From UHGV virus genome UHGV-1796162: 10,938 nucleotides of DNA, one strand, 5' to 3'. The stretch comes from a virus. Positions 1-10,938 of this stretch are shown here, in pieces. Position 1 is the first letter of the stretch. Every line of letters begins with the position of its first letter. The position numbers were made by a program, and so were the translations under genes. Below the pieces are notes generated by a model. That model searched no databases, was not told the DNA's origin, and worked only from the letters and a program-made list of their open reading frames with translations.

Positions 1-18
1 TTTAGTTTTAGTAGTCAT
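1..18 (-). CDS. 5' end of a CDS running off the left edge (ATG at 16..18, reads MTTKTK...); possibly rIIB by T4 synteny
   Basis: ATG on the minus strand at 16..18 preceded by CAAGAGAGAGTAATAAG (purine-rich RBS-like). It lies directly downstream of rIIA, the position rIIB occupies in T4. Only 6 codons are visible, so identity is synteny only. Confidence 0.3.
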
Positions 19-67
19 CTTATTACTCTCTCTTGTTAGTTAATAAATCATTTTGTAAGGCTATTCT

Positions 68-87
68 AAGGGGCTTTGAAGCCCCTT
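68..87 (-). other. GC-rich stem-loop (AAGGGGCT-TTGA-AGCCCCTT) between the rIIA stop and the next gene start
   Basis: Perfect 8-bp inverted repeat with a 4-nt loop, read directly. No clear U-tract follows on the minus strand, so it may be a weak terminator, attenuator or RNA-stability hairpin. Confidence 0.4.
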
Positions 88-97
88 GTCAAACACT

Positions 98-2464
98 TTA
101 ATCGTAAATTGTAGTCCCTTCTGGAACACACTTCACATCAAAGCCTAAGAACTTACTCACTTCGATGGGTGACACTTTATTCCAATCTAAATGAGAAAGC
201 AAGAAGTTTTCTTGTTTTCTTTTTGAGAAGTAGTTTGTCACCTTAATAAACATACGGTCACCAGCTTTCTTAATTTTCTTGTAAAGCTTTGTATCATTAT
301 CAAGACACCTTTTCAAATCTTGCAACACACTAATAGTGTAAGTGTATGCAAATTGTGCAGCAACGTATTGGATTTTACCGAACATTGCCTCAACAGCATC
401 TTCATTACCTTCTAGGAAGATAGTTTTGTTTGTGTCCTGTGAATAGCAATAACCATCAGAAATCTTCCTGTTATTGAACGTAAAGTTTCTGGTAATAATC
501 CAACAGCTTGTAAGGTTAAGGACACCACGCATACAGATGCGTGTCATATACCTGTTATGATTAATCCAATGAACATCAGTTAAGCTGTCGTTCAAGAGCT
601 TCTCATCTACTTCAATCCAGTCTTCTGGTATCTTTTTCCAATTTGCTTTTCGGAAAACATAGACTGTCTTCCCTATAACATTAGCAACTGACTTAGCTAC
701 ATCTTCTGGAGATGAGCAAAAACATTCGCCATCAACTGTGTCACCAACTGCCTTGATGTAAAGCTGAGGTTCTTCAATTGTGTCTAAGTCTTCTGACACC
801 TCTGTGTATGAGGCTACACCTTCTGCTGGAACAGCTTTCCAGAGTTTTACAACACCTCTTACAGCTTCTTTACGCTGATAGTGATGTTCCTTATCAGACA
901 TTTTCACAATCTTTAACAAGCTTTTATCAAGTTTGTGTAGATTGATTAAGTCATCTAGCTCTTTTTCAGTCGAGAATACAAAGACAATACCATTGTATCT
1001 GTGAAACAGACTAGACTCACTGGCATAGTCTCGACATGCACCACGCAAGATTTGATTGCGTCCTACAGTCTTCTCAGTACCGTTTTTATTACGACGGTCA
1101 TTTATAACAAACAAAAACTGTTCAATTTGGCTTTTACGCATTGCACCAAAGATATTGAACATACTTGCCTCTTGAGTGTAGGAAAGCGATGTTGCACGAA
1201 TCTTACTCTCTAAAGAGTTGAACTTGACATAAGCAACTGGGTCATAAAGATAATCTACTTTAGGGATATTGTTCCCGTTCCTATCAACCTTAATATTACC
1301 TTTGCCGTCACGTTCATAAATGACTGAGCCGTCTTCTGCGTAGATAATTCCACGACGAATGTTTAGTAATTCTTCTTCCAGAGATTCAAGCTTAACACCA
1401 CCCCACTCTAGCTTTGGACACACAACATTAAACATCTCTCGTGAGTTCAAGCGTAACTCAGCATAAGCCTGTGCAGCATCCATGAGTGTAGGTTGACTAT
1501 TAACTTTCTTGATAACATCCTTTGTAATTGCTTCAGTTATCTTTTTAGTAGCCTCGATGATAACATTTTTTGTCGTGTCATTCATCTGCAATGCTTCACG
1601 AGAAGCTGCAATAGCAACTGAACCAATAGGCATGTAGATGTTTACAAGGTCTATGCTCCTGCGGAAAAATTCTGGTAATACTTTGAAGAAATCATCACCA
1701 AGTAATGCCTCCATATTAACTGGGTAGGCAATATTACCCATAACCACGTTAAACTCTGTTCTATTGCTGCTTGAACGCCAGCTATGCTTATGAGTCATGG
1801 CATCATAGACACCTTCTTCACGAGCAATCACATCCATATCTGCTAATATATCATTATACTCCACATTGCTCTCTGGTTTTACAGCAAAGTATGAGTATAC
1901 ATTACCAGCCTCTTCAAAGAACTTTGAAATACGGTGGTCAGCAACTGCCACACGTACAGCTAAACCATTAGGTTCTTTTGTTGGGTTAGTGGTCAGTTTA
2001 GTTACTTGAGGTATACCATTCTCAAGATAAACAGAGTACTTATTAACAACACCGTCAACATAGCTAGACACTGTGAATGACTGAGCAATTGCAAATGGTG
2101 ATTTTGAGCCGATACCCATTGCGCCAATGTAGTCATTAGAGTCATTCTTCGTAGAAGCCCCATAGTTTAGGTACAAACTCATAACTTTATCATGAGTCAA
2201 CCCAGTTCCAAAATCACGAACTTCAAAGTAAGGTTCAAAACGAGTAGGTAAATGCACATGGAATGGAATATTCTCTTTTCCAGCTTCTTTCTGAGCATCT
2301 ACTGCGTTACATGACAGTTCACGAATCACTGCCCTTTCTTTAAAGGTATATACACCAGAACTCAAAAGGCTGAACATTTCAGGTGTCATTGTAATCTGTG
2401 CTTGAGACGTCTCTAAAGAAGTTGAACTCTTAATCACTTCTGCGTGGTCGTTTACCATGCGCAT
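98..2464 (-). CDS. rIIA: rIIA-like protein (membrane-integrity / rII exclusion protein with N-terminal GHKL/HATPase-like domain), 788 aa
   Basis: ORF track 98..2464. N-terminal region FKERAVIRELSCNAVDA resembles the conserved Bergerat-fold motif of T4 rIIA (recalled as ...KIRAVVRELITNMIDA...), and the ~790-aa size is similar to T4 rIIA (725 aa). ATG at 2462..2464 preceded by AAGAGGAAAGTATT. Match is from memory of the T4 sequence. Confidence 0.75.
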   Translation of the reverse strand: MRMVNDHAEVIKSSTSLETSQAQITMTPEMFSLLSSGVYTFKERAVIRELSCNAVDAQKEAGKENIPFHVHLPTRFEPYFEVRDFGTGLTHDKVMSLYLNYGASTKNDSNDYIGAMGIGSKSPFAIAQSFTVSSYVDGVVNKYSVYLENGIPQVTKLTTNPTKEPNGLAVRVAVADHRISKFFEEAGNVYSYFAVKPESNVEYNDILADMDVIAREEGVYDAMTHKHSWRSSSNRTEFNVVMGNIAYPVNMEALLGDDFFKVLPEFFRRSIDLVNIYMPIGSVAIAASREALQMNDTTKNVIIEATKKITEAITKDVIKKVNSQPTLMDAAQAYAELRLNSREMFNVVCPKLEWGGVKLESLEEELLNIRRGIIYAEDGSVIYERDGKGNIKVDRNGNNIPKVDYLYDPVAYVKFNSLESKIRATSLSYTQEASMFNIFGAMRKSQIEQFLFVINDRRNKNGTEKTVGRNQILRGACRDYASESSLFHRYNGIVFVFSTEKELDDLINLHKLDKSLLKIVKMSDKEHHYQRKEAVRGVVKLWKAVPAEGVASYTEVSEDLDTIEEPQLYIKAVGDTVDGECFCSSPEDVAKSVANVIGKTVYVFRKANWKKIPEDWIEVDEKLLNDSLTDVHWINHNRYMTRICMRGVLNLTSCWIITRNFTFNNRKISDGYCYSQDTNKTIFLEGNEDAVEAMFGKIQYVAAQFAYTYTISVLQDLKRCLDNDTKLYKKIKKAGDRMFIKVTNYFSKRKQENFLLSHLDWNKVSPIEVSKFLGFDVKCVPEGTTIYD

Positions 2465-2492
2465 AATACTTTCCTCTTAGTTTACTGTTAAA

Positions 2493-2669
2493 TTACTTAT
2501 TAAACATTTTACCAGAACCACCACACATAGGGCAGCAACCTGCTCTTGTATAACCTTCCCCATTACAGAAGTCACATTTTTTGTGTTCTGCAAAGTACTT
2601 ACAAAGAAGGTAAACAAATACTGCTACACTACCAAGTGACAGTAAAATTTCTATCCAATATGCTTGCAT
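2493..2669 (-). CDS. Small (58 aa) protein with an N-terminal transmembrane helix and two CxxCxGxG (DnaJ-type zinc-finger) motifs; not in the supplied ORF track
   Basis: Manual translation of the minus strand: MQAYWIEILLSLGSVAVFVYLLCKYFAEHKKCDFCNGEGYTRAGCCPMCGGSGKMFNK. ATG at 2667..2669 preceded by GAGAGGTGAGTC (good RBS); stop TAA at 2493..2495. It fills the otherwise unexplained gap between ORF111 and rIIA and sits where T4 has the small gene rIIA.1. Confidence 0.5.
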   Translation of the reverse strand: MQAYWIEILLSLGSVAVFVYLLCKYFAEHKKCDFCNGEGYTRAGCCPMCGGSGKMFNK

Positions 2670-2986
2670 GACTCACCTCTCATATTCTTGTAAAGGATAA
2701 AGCTTCTGTCATGGACGATACTTGTAGACACTGCAAAGTTACTTTCAAGCATCTGTTTGTTTGGATTGTAGAAGCTTTCTTTAAACTCGTCAAGTGCAAA
2801 TTGGTGATGTTGTGGAAGACCTTTTACACAGACTTTTATTGTGATTGCTGCTGCAATCTTGCCAGTCAGTTCTTCTTTAGCTGCTACTAGAATTTTGCTA
2901 AGGAACTTTTTACCATCTTCAGGTTTCTTAATGTTCTCCCAACGTTCTTCTAAGACAATGTTGATATTCATCTCTTTGATTTTCAT
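2651..2986 (-). CDS. Hypothetical protein, 111 aa
   Basis: ORF track 2651..2986. ATG at 2984..2986 preceded by GGAGAAAACT (RBS, ~7-nt spacing), immediately after a terminator hairpin. No recognisable motif. Confidence 0.6.
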   Translation of the reverse strand: MKIKEMNINIVLEERWENIKKPEDGKKFLSKILVAAKEELTGKIAAAITIKVCVKGLPQHHQFALDEFKESFYNPNKQMLESNFAVSTSIVHDRSFILYKNMRGESCKHIG

Positions 2987-3000
2987 AGTTTTCTCCAGAA

Positions 3001-3025
3001 ATTAAAAAGGCTCCCGTAGGAGCCT
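3001..3025 (-). terminator. Rho-independent terminator downstream of the Nampt-like gene
   Basis: On the minus strand: stem GGCTCC-TACG-GGAGCC (plus 3009..3024) followed by TTTTTAATTT. Lies between the Nampt stop (3040) and the ORF111 start (2986). Confidence 0.6.
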
Positions 3026-3039
3026 CTTATCATATACTT

Positions 3040-4821
3040 TTAAAGCTGCTTGTCAATATTATTTCGAATATCACCAAGAGATGTGTAACCGTACTGCTCA
3101 GAGTCACTAAAGACTAAACGTAAAGCACAAGCTGGGTGGTCAAGTGCATCTGCAAAGCTCTGGAATCCATAGCCATCTACAGCTTTCAACTTATCACCAT
3201 CCCACATAGGTGCTACACCACCAAAAGCAGACTTCTTAACACCACTATCTGTTTTAGGGTCTTTTGCAAGCATAATCTCTTTACCACCAATGCTTGCAAG
3301 AGTTGCTTTAACAGCAAATGCAAAGGTGTCACGAGTCATGTACTGGTAAGTGTAAGAGCCTACGCCAAACACTACGTTAGAGCTTGCAAAACCCATTTCA
3401 TACAGACGCTTCAGGATTTCGTTTGCACGTTCCAGCGTGATAGAGTCACCATAGATAAGGCCGATATGCTCATCCAGTACCTTAAACCCTTTAGAGTTAA
3501 TAGTTCCCCCAAAGATGTTATACAGTGTCTTGATAGCTCCATCAATCTCCGCTACAGGACGTGTTACAACGTTTGCAGAACCAACCATATAAGCATTTTT
3601 CAACAGCACTGTATCAGCAACTTCAAAGTCTTCTCTGTCAACAACCATTTCGTAGCCTTCTGACAGTAGCCATCCAGCAATACCATAATTGATGTTTTCA
3701 AGCTTCATGTTCAGGACAGAGTTCAGCATTGTGTCACTTGCCTCTAGCTTGCTTAGGTGCTCGTAATAAGCCTTCTTAGCACACTCTAAGTGAATTGCTT
3801 TATAACCTGTGACAATATGTACAGGGTCTCCAGAGTCAGGGCGAATTACCAGTTTGCCATCACGTTCCATAATTTCTTTACGGAGTGCTGGTAAGATTTC
3901 TGACACAGTTCTCCAGAAGTTGTAAGTATCTGAAACAATACTTGCAATACCAGTTGGGTAAGTTTCTGTTAAGAAACGACGGAAGGTTTGTAACTCACCT
4001 TTAAAGCGTCTTTCTTCTTCAATCAGTTCATTACCACCTTCCCAAGCAATGTTTGCACACATTACAGAGTGTTCAGTGGCTGGTACAGAGCTACCAATAT
4101 CAGAAATTGGGTAAGACTGTCCATAGATGCGTTTAGCCGTGTATACAGCAGGAAAACTGTCAGTTCCTTTAAAGCTGGTTAAGTGACCTACAGCGTTAAA
4201 TGCGTCATCAGTAAAGCCGGACATACCACGCATAGCAAAGTCATGACACTGATAAGGTAAATGTAAGTCGTTGTCACAAGTAAGGTCAGCCCACTTCTTA
4301 CAGATGCGTTTATAGTGCAATGCAATAGTTGCAATGGTACAAGCTTTCCAAATCTCAGCAGAGAAAGCATCTTCCAGATACCCTGCTACCCAATGGAAAC
4401 CTGAAACAGTGTTCTGGAAGACAATCATTGGGACACGCATTGGAACAACTGTGCCTTCTTCTACAGCGTATACTTCGACTGGCAGATAACCTAAGTCGTG
4501 AAGTGCTTCCCAATGCTCTCGACCAATAGCATCTTTGCCCAGAACACCGTTCATGACTTCTAAGATTTCGTCAATTGCTTCTTTTTTGTCACGTTCAAAG
4601 AAAGTGGCGTTCCAATGGTCTATCAAGTAATCTTTAACAAAACGTTGAATACCAAAAGCCACTACACCGTCAATTGCCAAAGGGCTGTTAAACCATTTGT
4701 CACTACGTGGTGTCAGGTTCAACATAAGATATTGCGTAGCATCTGGATACTGATATATATGTGATGCCTTGTAAGCATCTGCGTTTAAACCTGCTGGCAC
4801 TGCATAAAGTGATTTAGTCAT
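3040..4821 (-). CDS. nadV: Nicotinamide phosphoribosyltransferase family protein (Nampt/NadV-like; alternatively a nicotinamide ADP-ribose transferase of the phage NAD+ reconstitution pathway), 593 aa from the ATG
   Basis: The track ORF starts at TTG (4839); I place the start at ATG 4819..4821 (MTKSLYAVPAGL...) preceded by TGAGAGAGATTAAAAAG. Family motifs recalled from human NAMPT: NADAYKASHIYQYP (vs ATDSYKVTHYKQYP), LVIRPDSGDP (vs LIIRPDSGNP), INSKGFKVLDEHIGLIYGDS (vs [20 protein letters not shown]). It is ~100 aa longer than canonical Nampt. Confidence 0.85.
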   Translation of the reverse strand: MTKSLYAVPAGLNADAYKASHIYQYPDATQYLMLNLTPRSDKWFNSPLAIDGVVAFGIQRFVKDYLIDHWNATFFERDKKEAIDEILEVMNGVLGKDAIGREHWEALHDLGYLPVEVYAVEEGTVVPMRVPMIVFQNTVSGFHWVAGYLEDAFSAEIWKACTIATIALHYKRICKKWADLTCDNDLHLPYQCHDFAMRGMSGFTDDAFNAVGHLTSFKGTDSFPAVYTAKRIYGQSYPISDIGSSVPATEHSVMCANIAWEGGNELIEEERRFKGELQTFRRFLTETYPTGIASIVSDTYNFWRTVSEILPALRKEIMERDGKLVIRPDSGDPVHIVTGYKAIHLECAKKAYYEHLSKLEASDTMLNSVLNMKLENINYGIAGWLLSEGYEMVVDREDFEVADTVLLKNAYMVGSANVVTRPVAEIDGAIKTLYNIFGGTINSKGFKVLDEHIGLIYGDSITLERANEILKRLYEMGFASSNVVFGVGSYTYQYMTRDTFAFAVKATLASIGGKEIMLAKDPKTDSGVKKSAFGGVAPMWDGDKLKAVDGYGFQSFADALDHPACALRLVFSDSEQYGYTSLGDIRNNIDKQL

Positions 4822-4842
4822 CTTTTTAATCTCTCTCAAAAT

Positions 4843-4858
4843 GGGGCTTAAAAGCCCC
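4843..4858 (-). other. GC-rich stem-loop (GGGGCT-TAAA-AGCCCC) between the Prs-like and Nampt-like genes
   Basis: 6-7-bp perfect stem read directly. On the minus strand it is followed by ATTTTGAGAGAG, i.e. only a short U-run, so it is a possible partial terminator or processing/stability hairpin. The stem sequence is nearly identical to the hairpin at 68..87. Confidence 0.45.
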
Positions 4859-4868
4859 CTATAAAGTT

Positions 4869-5750
4869 TTAATCAAGGTTTGCTACAGTAACTTGACCAT
4901 AATGTGTTAAGCCACGGTCTTTAGCTTCCCCTAAAGAGTTTGTAGTGTAAATGTGGTCAATACCATTGTCAAGTAAGTTTTCAACACCTTTAGAGAAAAT
5001 ACCATGAGTTACATAAAGTTCCACACGTTTTGCACCTGCTTCACGAAGATGTTTTGCTGCTTCTACGAAGGTTCGACCACCATCACAGATATCATCAAGA
5101 ATCATGACGGTTTTATCGGTCAAATCAACATCATCAAGGATTCGCATACCAGTAATTTCACCAGTCTTAAGGTTACGCACTTTAGACATTATGATATATG
5201 GTTTATCCACCTCTTTAGCGGCATCTTTAGTCTTCTTAGCTGCACCTGCATCTGGGGCTACTAAGAAATCAATGCGCGGGTCACTTGCAAAGTGTACTGC
5301 AATTTCCTTTTGAGGAATACTCTGGAAGCAGTTAAATAGGTTATCTGGTACATAACTGTGAGGGTCAACTGCACAGACTGCACCAAATCCCATTGCATTC
5401 ACCTGCTTAGCAAAAACCTTTAAAGCTGCTGCATCACCTTTAAACATGTGACGGTCATATCGTGCATTTGGTAAGTAGTAAAAAATGACAGTCTTTAAGG
5501 CATATTCATGAGGAACTAAATCATCAATTGCTTCTTTAGCAAGTGCCACAGCAAACAATGTGTCTTTATCATAACCTTTTACAATCATAATCACATTGTT
5601 GATGGATGATGCTGCGTGAGCAGTAAAGTCAACAAGCTCTTGTGAAAAGTGTCCACCAATCTCACCAGAAGGGAACTGGATGAGGTTAAACTCTTCTTCA
5701 TGAGACCCTTTTGTCGGTGAATGAATTATAACACGGATAGATGTTTTCAT
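4869..5750 (-). CDS. prs: Ribose-phosphate pyrophosphokinase (PRPP synthetase, Prs) family protein; alternatively an ADP-ribose pyrophosphokinase, 293 aa from the ATG
   Basis: The track ORF starts at TTG; I place the start at ATG 5748..5750 (MKTSIRVIIHSP...) preceded by TGAGAGTAAAACT. Type I PRTase ribose-phosphate binding loop VMILDDICDGGRTF (cf. Prs ...DD.IDTGGT) and a DPHS segment resembling the Prs DLHA region. Size matches Prs (~300 aa). Confidence 0.8.
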   Translation of the reverse strand: MKTSIRVIIHSPTKGSHEEEFNLIQFPSGEIGGHFSQELVDFTAHAASSINNVIMIVKGYDKDTLFAVALAKEAIDDLVPHEYALKTVIFYYLPNARYDRHMFKGDAAALKVFAKQVNAMGFGAVCAVDPHSYVPDNLFNCFQSIPQKEIAVHFASDPRIDFLVAPDAGAAKKTKDAAKEVDKPYIIMSKVRNLKTGEITGMRILDDVDLTDKTVMILDDICDGGRTFVEAAKHLREAGAKRVELYVTHGIFSKGVENLLDNGIDHIYTTNSLGEAKDRGLTHYGQVTVANLD

Positions 5751-10416: not shown

Positions 10417-10938
10417 ACCCATCGGTGAAATTACCTTGCCAGAACGCTCAAAAGCTTCTGCTACAGCACCATGACCAGATACACTTAAGAAATCTGGATA
10501 CATTGCTTTAGAGCAGCACTCAATAGCTTTACTGTACAGGTGGCCTTGACAGATATTCTCATTATGTCTCTTCTGGTCATAAATATAAACCAGTTTAGGG
10601 AATACAACAGGCTTCTTGCTCTTACCTTGTCCATTCATACGAACATCTAGGAGAGTACTTGCAATTATATATTGCAGTCGGTTATCTTCATTGGACATAT
10701 CTGAGTCAAGTAACCCGAATGTCAAAGTTGTGAATGCAAAATCCCCACGACTACAAGGTACAGTATTTAGTTTCATTTCAAGTGACTGGAAACCTTGAGT
10801 TAGCTCAATCTGTAGCTGCTCCATGACATAATTGTGGTAATGCTCTTTAGGAATACCATAAGATGCTGCTTTCTCAGCATGATAGCGTAGAGACTTCTTA
10901 GCATACGGTACAAGTACCTTATCAATCTCTGCTAAAGT
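10417..10938 (-). CDS. nrdD: Anaerobic ribonucleoside-triphosphate reductase NrdD, exon 1 (partial; the 5' end lies beyond the right edge of the window)
   Basis: The frame of track ORF 10414..10824 stays open, with no stop, up to position 10938 (TLAEIDKVLVPYAKKSLRYHAEKAASYGIPKEHYHNYVMEQ...). It ends ...KVISPMG immediately before the intron 5' splice site. Joining to exon 2 gives ...SPMGCRAFLSPY..., matching the conserved class III RNR active-site Cys region as I recall it. Confidence 0.8.

Follow-up and report, generated by a model that had tools for sequence, protein, structure and literature searches.

The DNA analysed here, referred to as the window, is the whole of a 10,938-nucleotide stretch of the virus genome UHGV-1796162; the region is 93–98% identical to many Felixounavirus genomes, and by this measure the window is Felixounavirus. 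The ORF listing of the window contains, on the minus strand at 2669..2493, a 58-codon ORF that begins with ATG and ends with a stop codon at 2493-2495 (minus strand). Its translation, MQAYWIEILLSLGSVAVFVYLLCKYFAEHKKCDFCNGEGYTRAGCCPMCGGSGKMFNK, matches the text quoted in the preliminary description, and the coding sequence (2493..2669, minus strand) is predicted to specify a membrane-anchored zinc-finger protein of 58 aa. Upstream of the small ORF lies ORF111 (2651..2986, minus strand; PHROG 4262), and downstream of it lies rIIA (98..2464, minus strand; 788 aa). The claim that the interval between ORF111 and rIIA is not empty holds to the extent that a gene is present, but this gene is not a simple gap filler: it is read from the minus strand and its start overlaps the last 19 nt of ORF111 (2651-2669), and its stop is separated by 28 nt from the rIIA start at 2464. 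Felixounavirus, Mooglevirus and Suspvirus all retain the 19-nt overlap between ORF111 and the small ORF, and ORF111 itself gave no Pfam or NCBIfam match.

A Shine-Dalgarno region, GAGAGGTGAGTC, abuts the ATG at 2670..2681 (minus strand), inside the 3' end of ORF111. Within it, GAGGTGA provides seven consecutive bases complementary to the 3' end of 16S rRNA, with its GAGG core at a normal distance, ending 6 nt ahead of the ATG. The strong ribosome-binding site claimed for the 58-aa protein, with GAGAGGTGAGTC followed directly by ATG, was thus found as quoted. The Shine-Dalgarno sequence is nearly invariant in the Felixounavirus copies, with single-base variants in locus L029 and Bas63, and a purine-rich GGAG/GAGG-type sequence precedes the start in every other lineage too.

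Further upstream, between NAMPT and ORF111, a consensus scan only gave a promoter-like TTGACA-16-TATGAT (3056..3029, minus strand), which is sigma-70-like and near consensus with 11/12 matches. It is abutted by a terminator-like hairpin with a 10-bp GC-rich stem just after the NAMPT stop (3028..3005, minus strand). The segment 3005..3056 is the probable 5' boundary of a transcription unit comprising ORF111, the small ORF and rIIA, as judged from these two elements. A transcript start predicted from the promoter-like site would fall inside the adjoining hairpin. A terminator scan of 1-5200 found no hairpin besides that at 3028..3005, and hence none that separates ORF111, the small ORF and rIIA, and the promoter-like matches within and around these three genes were all weaker.

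The small ORF is the Felix O1 gene ORF131 (Felix01p243, NP_945023.1, ‘hypothetical membrane protein’), with orthologues in Bas63 gp83 (bas63_0083) and SUSP1 gp080 (AVU07_agp080). The Felix O1 ORF131 and Bas63 gp83 proteins are mutually identical and differ from the window protein at F26Y and F34Y. The match to PHROG 3931 is full length (E=2.1e-33, covering residues 1-58 and positions 1-59 of the 59 in the profile), and the genomic position is that of the PHROG 3931/Felix O1 ORF131 group, after NAMPT and ORF130/ORF111 and before rIIA. Felix O1 ORF131, Bas63 gp83, SUSP1 gp080 and PHROG 3931 are all the same gene as the small ORF, with nothing material different between them. The gene had been described as unannotated, which is correct for the supplied track, from which it is absent because of the 60-aa cutoff, but Felix O1 and most related GenBank records do annotate it. 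The usual labels there are ‘hypothetical protein’, ‘membrane protein’ or ‘putative membrane protein’, a few records give ‘heat shock protein’, and some, such as that of phage allfine, omit the ORF. This is a catalogued gene, not a new one, and it has already been covered by two genome-wide phage fitness screens. Neither ‘heat shock protein’ nor holin candidate is a founded label, and the former is wrong because the protein has no J domain. Records under other names also carry this DNA: GU169904 (‘Staphylococcus phage SA1’) and MG065664 and MG065668 (‘Campylobacter phage A132/A126’) contain ∼96% identical Felixounavirus DNA including the small ORF, and PV390658 (vB_EcoM_P54) is an 88-kb Felixounavirus-like phage filed under Tequatrovirus. 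These four records are probably contaminated, chimeric or mislabelled.

Loss of the frame in close relatives would speak against a gene, and the preliminary description had proposed a check of conservation and dN/dS. All 26 of 26 Felixounavirus copies, representing 23 distinct DNA sequences, have the small ORF intact. Variable sites among these 26 copies are distributed over codon positions 1/2/3 as 8/5/30, and the pooled pairwise pN/pS is 0.092. The frame is likewise intact in all fetched Ounavirinae loci with a homologue, and the intact protein cluster, P0001, has 262 member sequences. Homologues from Mooglevirus, Suspvirus and the T4-like Krischvirus, at 40–57% identity, keep the frame, the hydrophobic N-terminus and the Cys and Gly residues of the motifs, and alignment A2 shows no variation at these Cys and Gly positions; SUSP1 gp080 has Asp in place of Gly39 in the first motif (CEGSD). 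SUSP1 gp080 is closer to the Mooglevirus copies than to those of SUSP2 and EcSzw_1, a resemblance that hints at exchange between genera. Frameshifted copies also exist but are rare. In phiWec172, phiWec174 and phiWec177 one G is missing from a GGGG run at codons 37-38 (window ∼2557-2560), and the frame shifts downstream of the first motif, with a 63-aa product as the result; three further variants, each a singleton, are shifted at other points. These copies may represent tolerated loss or homopolymer sequencing errors, and they do not outweigh the 262-member intact cluster.

On these comparisons the small ORF is almost certainly a real gene under purifying selection. The opposite reading, that the frame is open merely by chance and the stretch is intergenic or regulatory, could appeal to its shortness at 58 codons, to its omission from records such as that of phage allfine and to the few frameshifted copies known. 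It is already refuted by the pattern of conservation, and we give it hardly any chance: pN/pS is 0.09 with the variation concentrated at third codon positions, every fetched Ounavirinae locus with a homologue retains the frame, the motif Cys and Gly residues are kept across genera at 40–55% identity, and the Shine-Dalgarno sequence is conserved.

The family of full-length relatives is itself small. A word-indexed protein search with the small ORF returned only close relatives and the frameshifted variants, and a full hmmsearch of 1.84 billion representatives gave 1257 matches, nearly all of them multi-repeat CxxCxGxG proteins, with small full-length homologues making up about ten 50%-identity clusters among those representatives. 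Three single-protein scans for the IMG/VR context of the metagenomic small homologues P0065, P0153 and P0060 yielded nothing useful.

The C-terminal part of the protein contains two CxxCxGxG motifs, CDFCNGEG at residues 32-39 (2553..2576, minus strand) and CPMCGGSG at residues 46-53 (2511..2534, minus strand). These are the only two matches to CxxCxGxG across all six frames of the window; in 300 shuffles of the window the mean was 0.03 matches and two or more were never reached. An extra cysteine, Cys45, stands directly before the second motif, and most homologues have an extra cysteine beside one motif; it is absent in P0011 and P778. Searches of Pfam and NCBIfam with the small-ORF protein gave sub-threshold matches only (DUF5351, DnaJ_CXXCXGXG, Lar, RtpA and the NrdD zinc ribbon). 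The single-sequence score for DnaJ_CXXCXGXG (PF00684) was 15.6 bits against a gathering cutoff of 32.7, over profile positions 34-65 of 65, which is half of the four-motif model; DUF5351 (PF17302) reached 18.5 bits against 27, RtpA (NF058604) was far below its cutoff at 10.5 bits against 65, and the DnaJ equivalog models gave ∼16 bits against a cutoff of 377.

The domain assignment comes instead from a profile search against the PDB, for which the query was A2, an alignment of eleven family members. The best match was the E. coli DnaJ cysteine-rich domain 1exk (E=2.1e-10), followed by human DnaJA3 2ctt (E=1.8e-6) and by anti-TRAP 3lcz (E=0.0019) and 2bx9 (E=0.044). Both DnaJ-type motifs named in the preliminary description were thus found, and the DnaJ cysteine-rich domain and anti-TRAP profile matches agree with them. 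Residues 31-55 align without gaps to residues 11-35 of anti-TRAP 3lcz, and so the spacer between the motifs is of the same length, six residues. We consider it near certain, from these profile comparisons, that the domain is a cysteine knuckle of the DnaJ/anti-TRAP type. With only two motifs, one Zn(Cys)4 centre is the sole possible arrangement, and we infer that the knuckle would bind one zinc through four cysteines.

The N-terminal hydrophobic helix was equally evident. The most hydrophobic 19-residue segment spans residues 5-23, where the mean Kyte-Doolittle value is 2.11, and codons 5-23 (2601..2657, minus strand) are predicted, from hydropathy, AlphaFold2 and the alignments, to encode a single transmembrane helix, WIEILLSLGSVAVFVYLLC. 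The AlphaFold2 model of the small-ORF protein, with a mean pLDDT of 76, has a helix at 3-27 followed by short hairpins. Two polar residues one helical turn apart, E7 and S11, are invariant among the main homologue groups, and are not kept in the most distant homologues. Lysine and arginine are absent from the N-terminal tail in all 15 homologues (0/15), whilst the C-terminal side carries between one and six in every case. Under the positive-inside rule, this distribution predicts a C-terminal domain in the cytoplasm, with the N-terminus outside, in the periplasm. Since the C-terminal domains of Mooglevirus and Suspvirus are neutral or net acidic, the topology call is based on K/R counts and not on net charge, and it is weaker for these two genera. 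Zinc-thiolate sites are stable in the cytoplasm. The missing basic N-region also argues against a Sec-type signal. The topology prediction that had been proposed as a check therefore gives one N-terminal helix and, from the K/R distribution, a predicted cytoplasmic knuckle.

The place of the small gene was then compared among lineages, in which the gene order is NAMPT, variable small genes, the small gene, rIIA and rIIB. In Felixounavirus, Mooglevirus, Suspvirus and Kolesnikvirus a small gene encoding a helix and two CxxCxGxG motifs stands directly upstream of rIIA; in Kolesnikvirus phiEa21-4, gp117 is the last gene of the record and rIIA is at record position 1. The unclassified Yersinia phage P778 also has the small gene upstream of rIIA, with an rIIA that is only 39% identical and without ORF111. 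The position upstream of rIIA reported for the window is therefore kept in the four Ounavirinae genera sampled and in P778. On the NAMPT side, ORF111, Bas63 g81 and phiEa21-4 gp115/116 come and go, so that the small gene keeps rIIA beside it as the genes on its other side vary. The two share a strand and are separated by spacers of 28–60 nt. Moogleviruses and SUSP1 have a sigma-70-like TTGACA-17-TATAGT in a ∼60-nt spacer before rIIA, and the Felixounavirus spacer is 28 nt. A subset of Felixounavirus has an extra gene of ∼350 bp between NAMPT and ORF111 (Bas63 g81, 10509-10853), which is absent from the window.

Adjacency to rIIA was found in all Ounavirinae-type phages examined, and the Krischvirus homologue is instead beside nrdH. 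In phage Whisky (region 2736-3153) this homologue is 52 aa long and its gene shares 11 nt with the 3' end of the nrdH glutaredoxin gene, and in Krischvirus (RB49-like) it is followed by a DUF7570 gene and then a DEAD-box helicase gene; 62 Krischvirus-type records carry the T4-like homologue. T4 rIIA.1, considered as a counterpart upstream of rIIA, is unrelated to the small-ORF protein.

Published data bear on both the expression and the dispensability of the gene. By RT-PCR the flanks of Felix O1 ORF131, namely ORFs 129, 130 and 1, peak at 25 min, and the late genes peak at 60 min (PMC3185647). For Bas63, PhageMaP knockout fitness was taken, with three replicates per sheet, from two laboratory-host sheets and four of the ten defence sheets (10.1101/2024.10.10.617714). 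The g83 values were +0.25, +0.11 and +0.48 on the S17 laboratory host and +1.27, -0.07 and -0.17 in the second laboratory-host sheet (file 3), and on laboratory hosts 7/9 replicate values were positive and two near zero (10.1101/2024.10.10.617714). The g83 values were positive throughout the four defence sheets: +0.10, +0.51 and +1.16 with TerY-P; +0.39, +0.66 and +0.88 in a second defence sheet; +1.37, +1.16 and +0.51 in a sheet where g79 and g80 were strongly negative; and +0.77, +0.66 and +0.81 with QatABCD (10.1101/2024.10.10.617714). The genes g79 and g80 are Prs and NAMPT, of NAD salvage, and are assigned to Sir2-HerA (10.1101/2024.10.10.617714). The rIIA and rIIB genes of Bas63 counter QatABCD, and with this system the values were -1.26, -1.30 and -1.61 for g84 (rIIA) and -1.05, -2.46 and -2.45 for g85 (rIIB) (10.1101/2024.10.10.617714). 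In addition, CRISPRi-ART scores SUSP1 gp080 as ‘Not Fit’ (PMC11879866).

Both the Bas63 knockout and the SUSP1 knockdown indicate that the small gene is dispensable on laboratory hosts, and it does not share the QatABCD phenotype, the one rII-dependent phenotype measured. The functions that the preliminary description had put forward fared less well than its reading of the sequence. An anti-defence role finds no backing, and Bas63 gp83 was needed neither against QatABCD nor in the three other defence sheets; a role in lysis timing is disfavoured by the dispensability of the gene and by neighbours on both sides that peak at the middle stage; and for membrane-associated regulation there was no positive evidence.

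Taken together, these results lead us to a picture, to which we assign a probability of roughly 0.55, of a non-essential bitopic membrane protein that presents a tethered, protein-binding zinc knuckle and has a conditional role. Translation would start from the strong Shine-Dalgarno sequence, probably coupled to that of ORF111, and the gene probably shares a middle-stage transcript with rIIA and rIIB. The product would span the inner membrane once, with a tail of four residues without basic residues predicted to be periplasmic, a transmembrane helix at about residues 5-23 and a C-terminal domain of 35 residues predicted to be cytoplasmic. There the two motifs, six residues apart, would form one Zn(Cys)4 knuckle; knuckles of this type also occur in the cysteine-rich domain of DnaJ, and Bacillus anti-TRAP has one that stands by itself. 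By analogy with the zinc centres of anti-TRAP and DnaJ, the knuckle may form a small protein-binding surface which, tethered on the cytoplasmic side of the membrane, would bind a putative partner protein or sequester it. Because the gene is dispensable on laboratory hosts, its role would be conditional and host-dependent and would lie outside core replication. The uncertainty of this picture lies in its mechanism; coding status and domain type are near certain.

Other functions have to be weighed against this picture, and gene order alone suggests one of them, in which the protein would serve the rIIA/rIIB membrane-integrity module as its dedicated partner or regulator in the membrane, for example by recruiting or tuning the rII proteins at the inner membrane. 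The constancy of its place upstream of rIIA in four Ounavirinae genera and P778, down to 39% rIIA identity, the turnover of ORF111, Bas63 g81 and phiEa21-4 gp115/116 around it, and the short same-strand spacers of 28–60 nt would all fit such a role. However, gene order can persist by shared ancestry alone, the Krischvirus homologue adjoins nrdH and not rII, T4 rIIA.1 is unrelated, a sigma-70-like promoter separates the small gene from rIIA in Moogleviruses, and QatABCD depletes the g84 and g85 knockouts (-1.0 to -2.5) but not that of g83 (+0.66 to +0.81), so that we regard this function as rather unlikely. Equally tentative is the proposal that the membrane-tethered knuckle acts as a specific protein inhibitor or adaptor at the inner membrane, either as a third rIIA/rIIB component or as a blocker of a membrane-associated defence or of a superinfecting phage. 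If true, this proposal would explain, in either form, why adjacency to rIIA extends across the subfamily despite dispensability on laboratory strains, and in its first form the protein would tune the rIIA/rIIB membrane-integrity module in particular hosts, as a component not recognised before.

Still less probable is a thiol-redox factor, in which the knuckle and the extra cysteine would make a membrane-bound oxidoreductase or a redox-sensitive switch, functions of a kind reported for the zinc centre of DnaJ and for DnaJ-like proteins of thylakoids. The Krischvirus homologue does overlap the end of the nrdH glutaredoxin gene, most homologues have the extra cysteine beside one motif, and two papers describe DnaJ-type zinc fingers with oxidoreductase activity (PMC8262869, PMC7865324). 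Against this, the nrdH adjacency occurs in a single lineage, the extra cysteine is missing in P0011 and P778, the Ounavirinae copy is without any link to redox genes, and in the cytoplasm, where the knuckle is predicted to lie, a structural role for the zinc is more likely than disulfide chemistry. A holin, antiholin or lysis-timing protein is more improbable again, even though the product is small, is a membrane protein rich in lysine at its C-terminus, adjoins genes that databases call ‘lysis inhibitors’, and, as Felix O1 gp131, was placed among five possible holins by Whichard et al. (2010) (PMC3185647). One transmembrane helix with a folded zinc knuckle, as predicted here, is not what such a role would lead us to expect, the Bas63 knockout and the SUSP1 knockdown carry no fitness cost, the PhageMaP annotation of Bas63 names other holins (g29 and g153), and the flanking genes peak at the middle stage (25 min) and not with the late genes at 60 min.

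The gene call itself adds nothing new, given Felix01p243 in RefSeq, a PHROG family and two screens. What is added is a precise description of the product as an anti-TRAP-like knuckle, with a single inferred zinc centre, on a membrane anchor, together with the strong purifying selection on the gene and its positional tie to rIIA across the Ounavirinae genera sampled. As the mechanism of rII is poorly understood, a small membrane protein that is conserved next to rIIA makes an inexpensive candidate for testing, with expectations kept modest by the finding that QatABCD, the one rII-dependent phenotype measured, does not need the small gene.

The tethered knuckle that we favour can be set beside three kinds of known protein. 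The cysteine-rich domain of DnaJ/Hsp40 (PF00684, 1exk) shares the repeat signature and is the best profile match, but DnaJ has four motifs and two zinc centres, located between a J domain and substrate-binding domains, whereas the small-ORF protein lacks a J domain and joins just two motifs to a membrane anchor. It was rejected as a DnaJ/Hsp40 co-chaperone on the same grounds, being without J and substrate-binding domains and having, within 58 residues, a transmembrane helix as its only other element. Architecture, in the sense of membrane attachment combined with a DnaJ-type finger that lacks a J domain, is what it shares with certain chloroplast proteins. Membrane attachment together with a DnaJ-type zinc finger and no J domain is described for the chloroplast protein ZnJ6 (PMC7865324). 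LQY1 and OR are further membrane-associated chloroplast DnaJ-like zinc-finger proteins without a J domain. The likeness to ZnJ6, LQY1 and OR is one of architecture only, as these eukaryotic proteins are far larger, carry four motifs and two zinc centres, and differ in origin and compartment.

In the organisation of the knuckle itself, the counterpart is anti-TRAP (RtpA) of Bacillus (2bx9, 3lcz). Membership of the RtpA family was considered and rejected, given the score of 10.5 against 65 bits and an N-terminal transmembrane helix in place of the C-terminal helix, and the profile and NCBIfam comparisons gave no sign of common descent with anti-TRAP beyond the motif. Anti-TRAP oligomerises via its C-terminal helix and is soluble, whereas the small-ORF protein carries an N-terminal membrane helix. 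Phages commonly encode small zinc-finger proteins that are DnaJ-like or anti-TRAP-like, and the window protein resembles anti-TRAP, at ∼53 aa, in its two motifs, its six-residue spacer and what is here one predicted zinc site.
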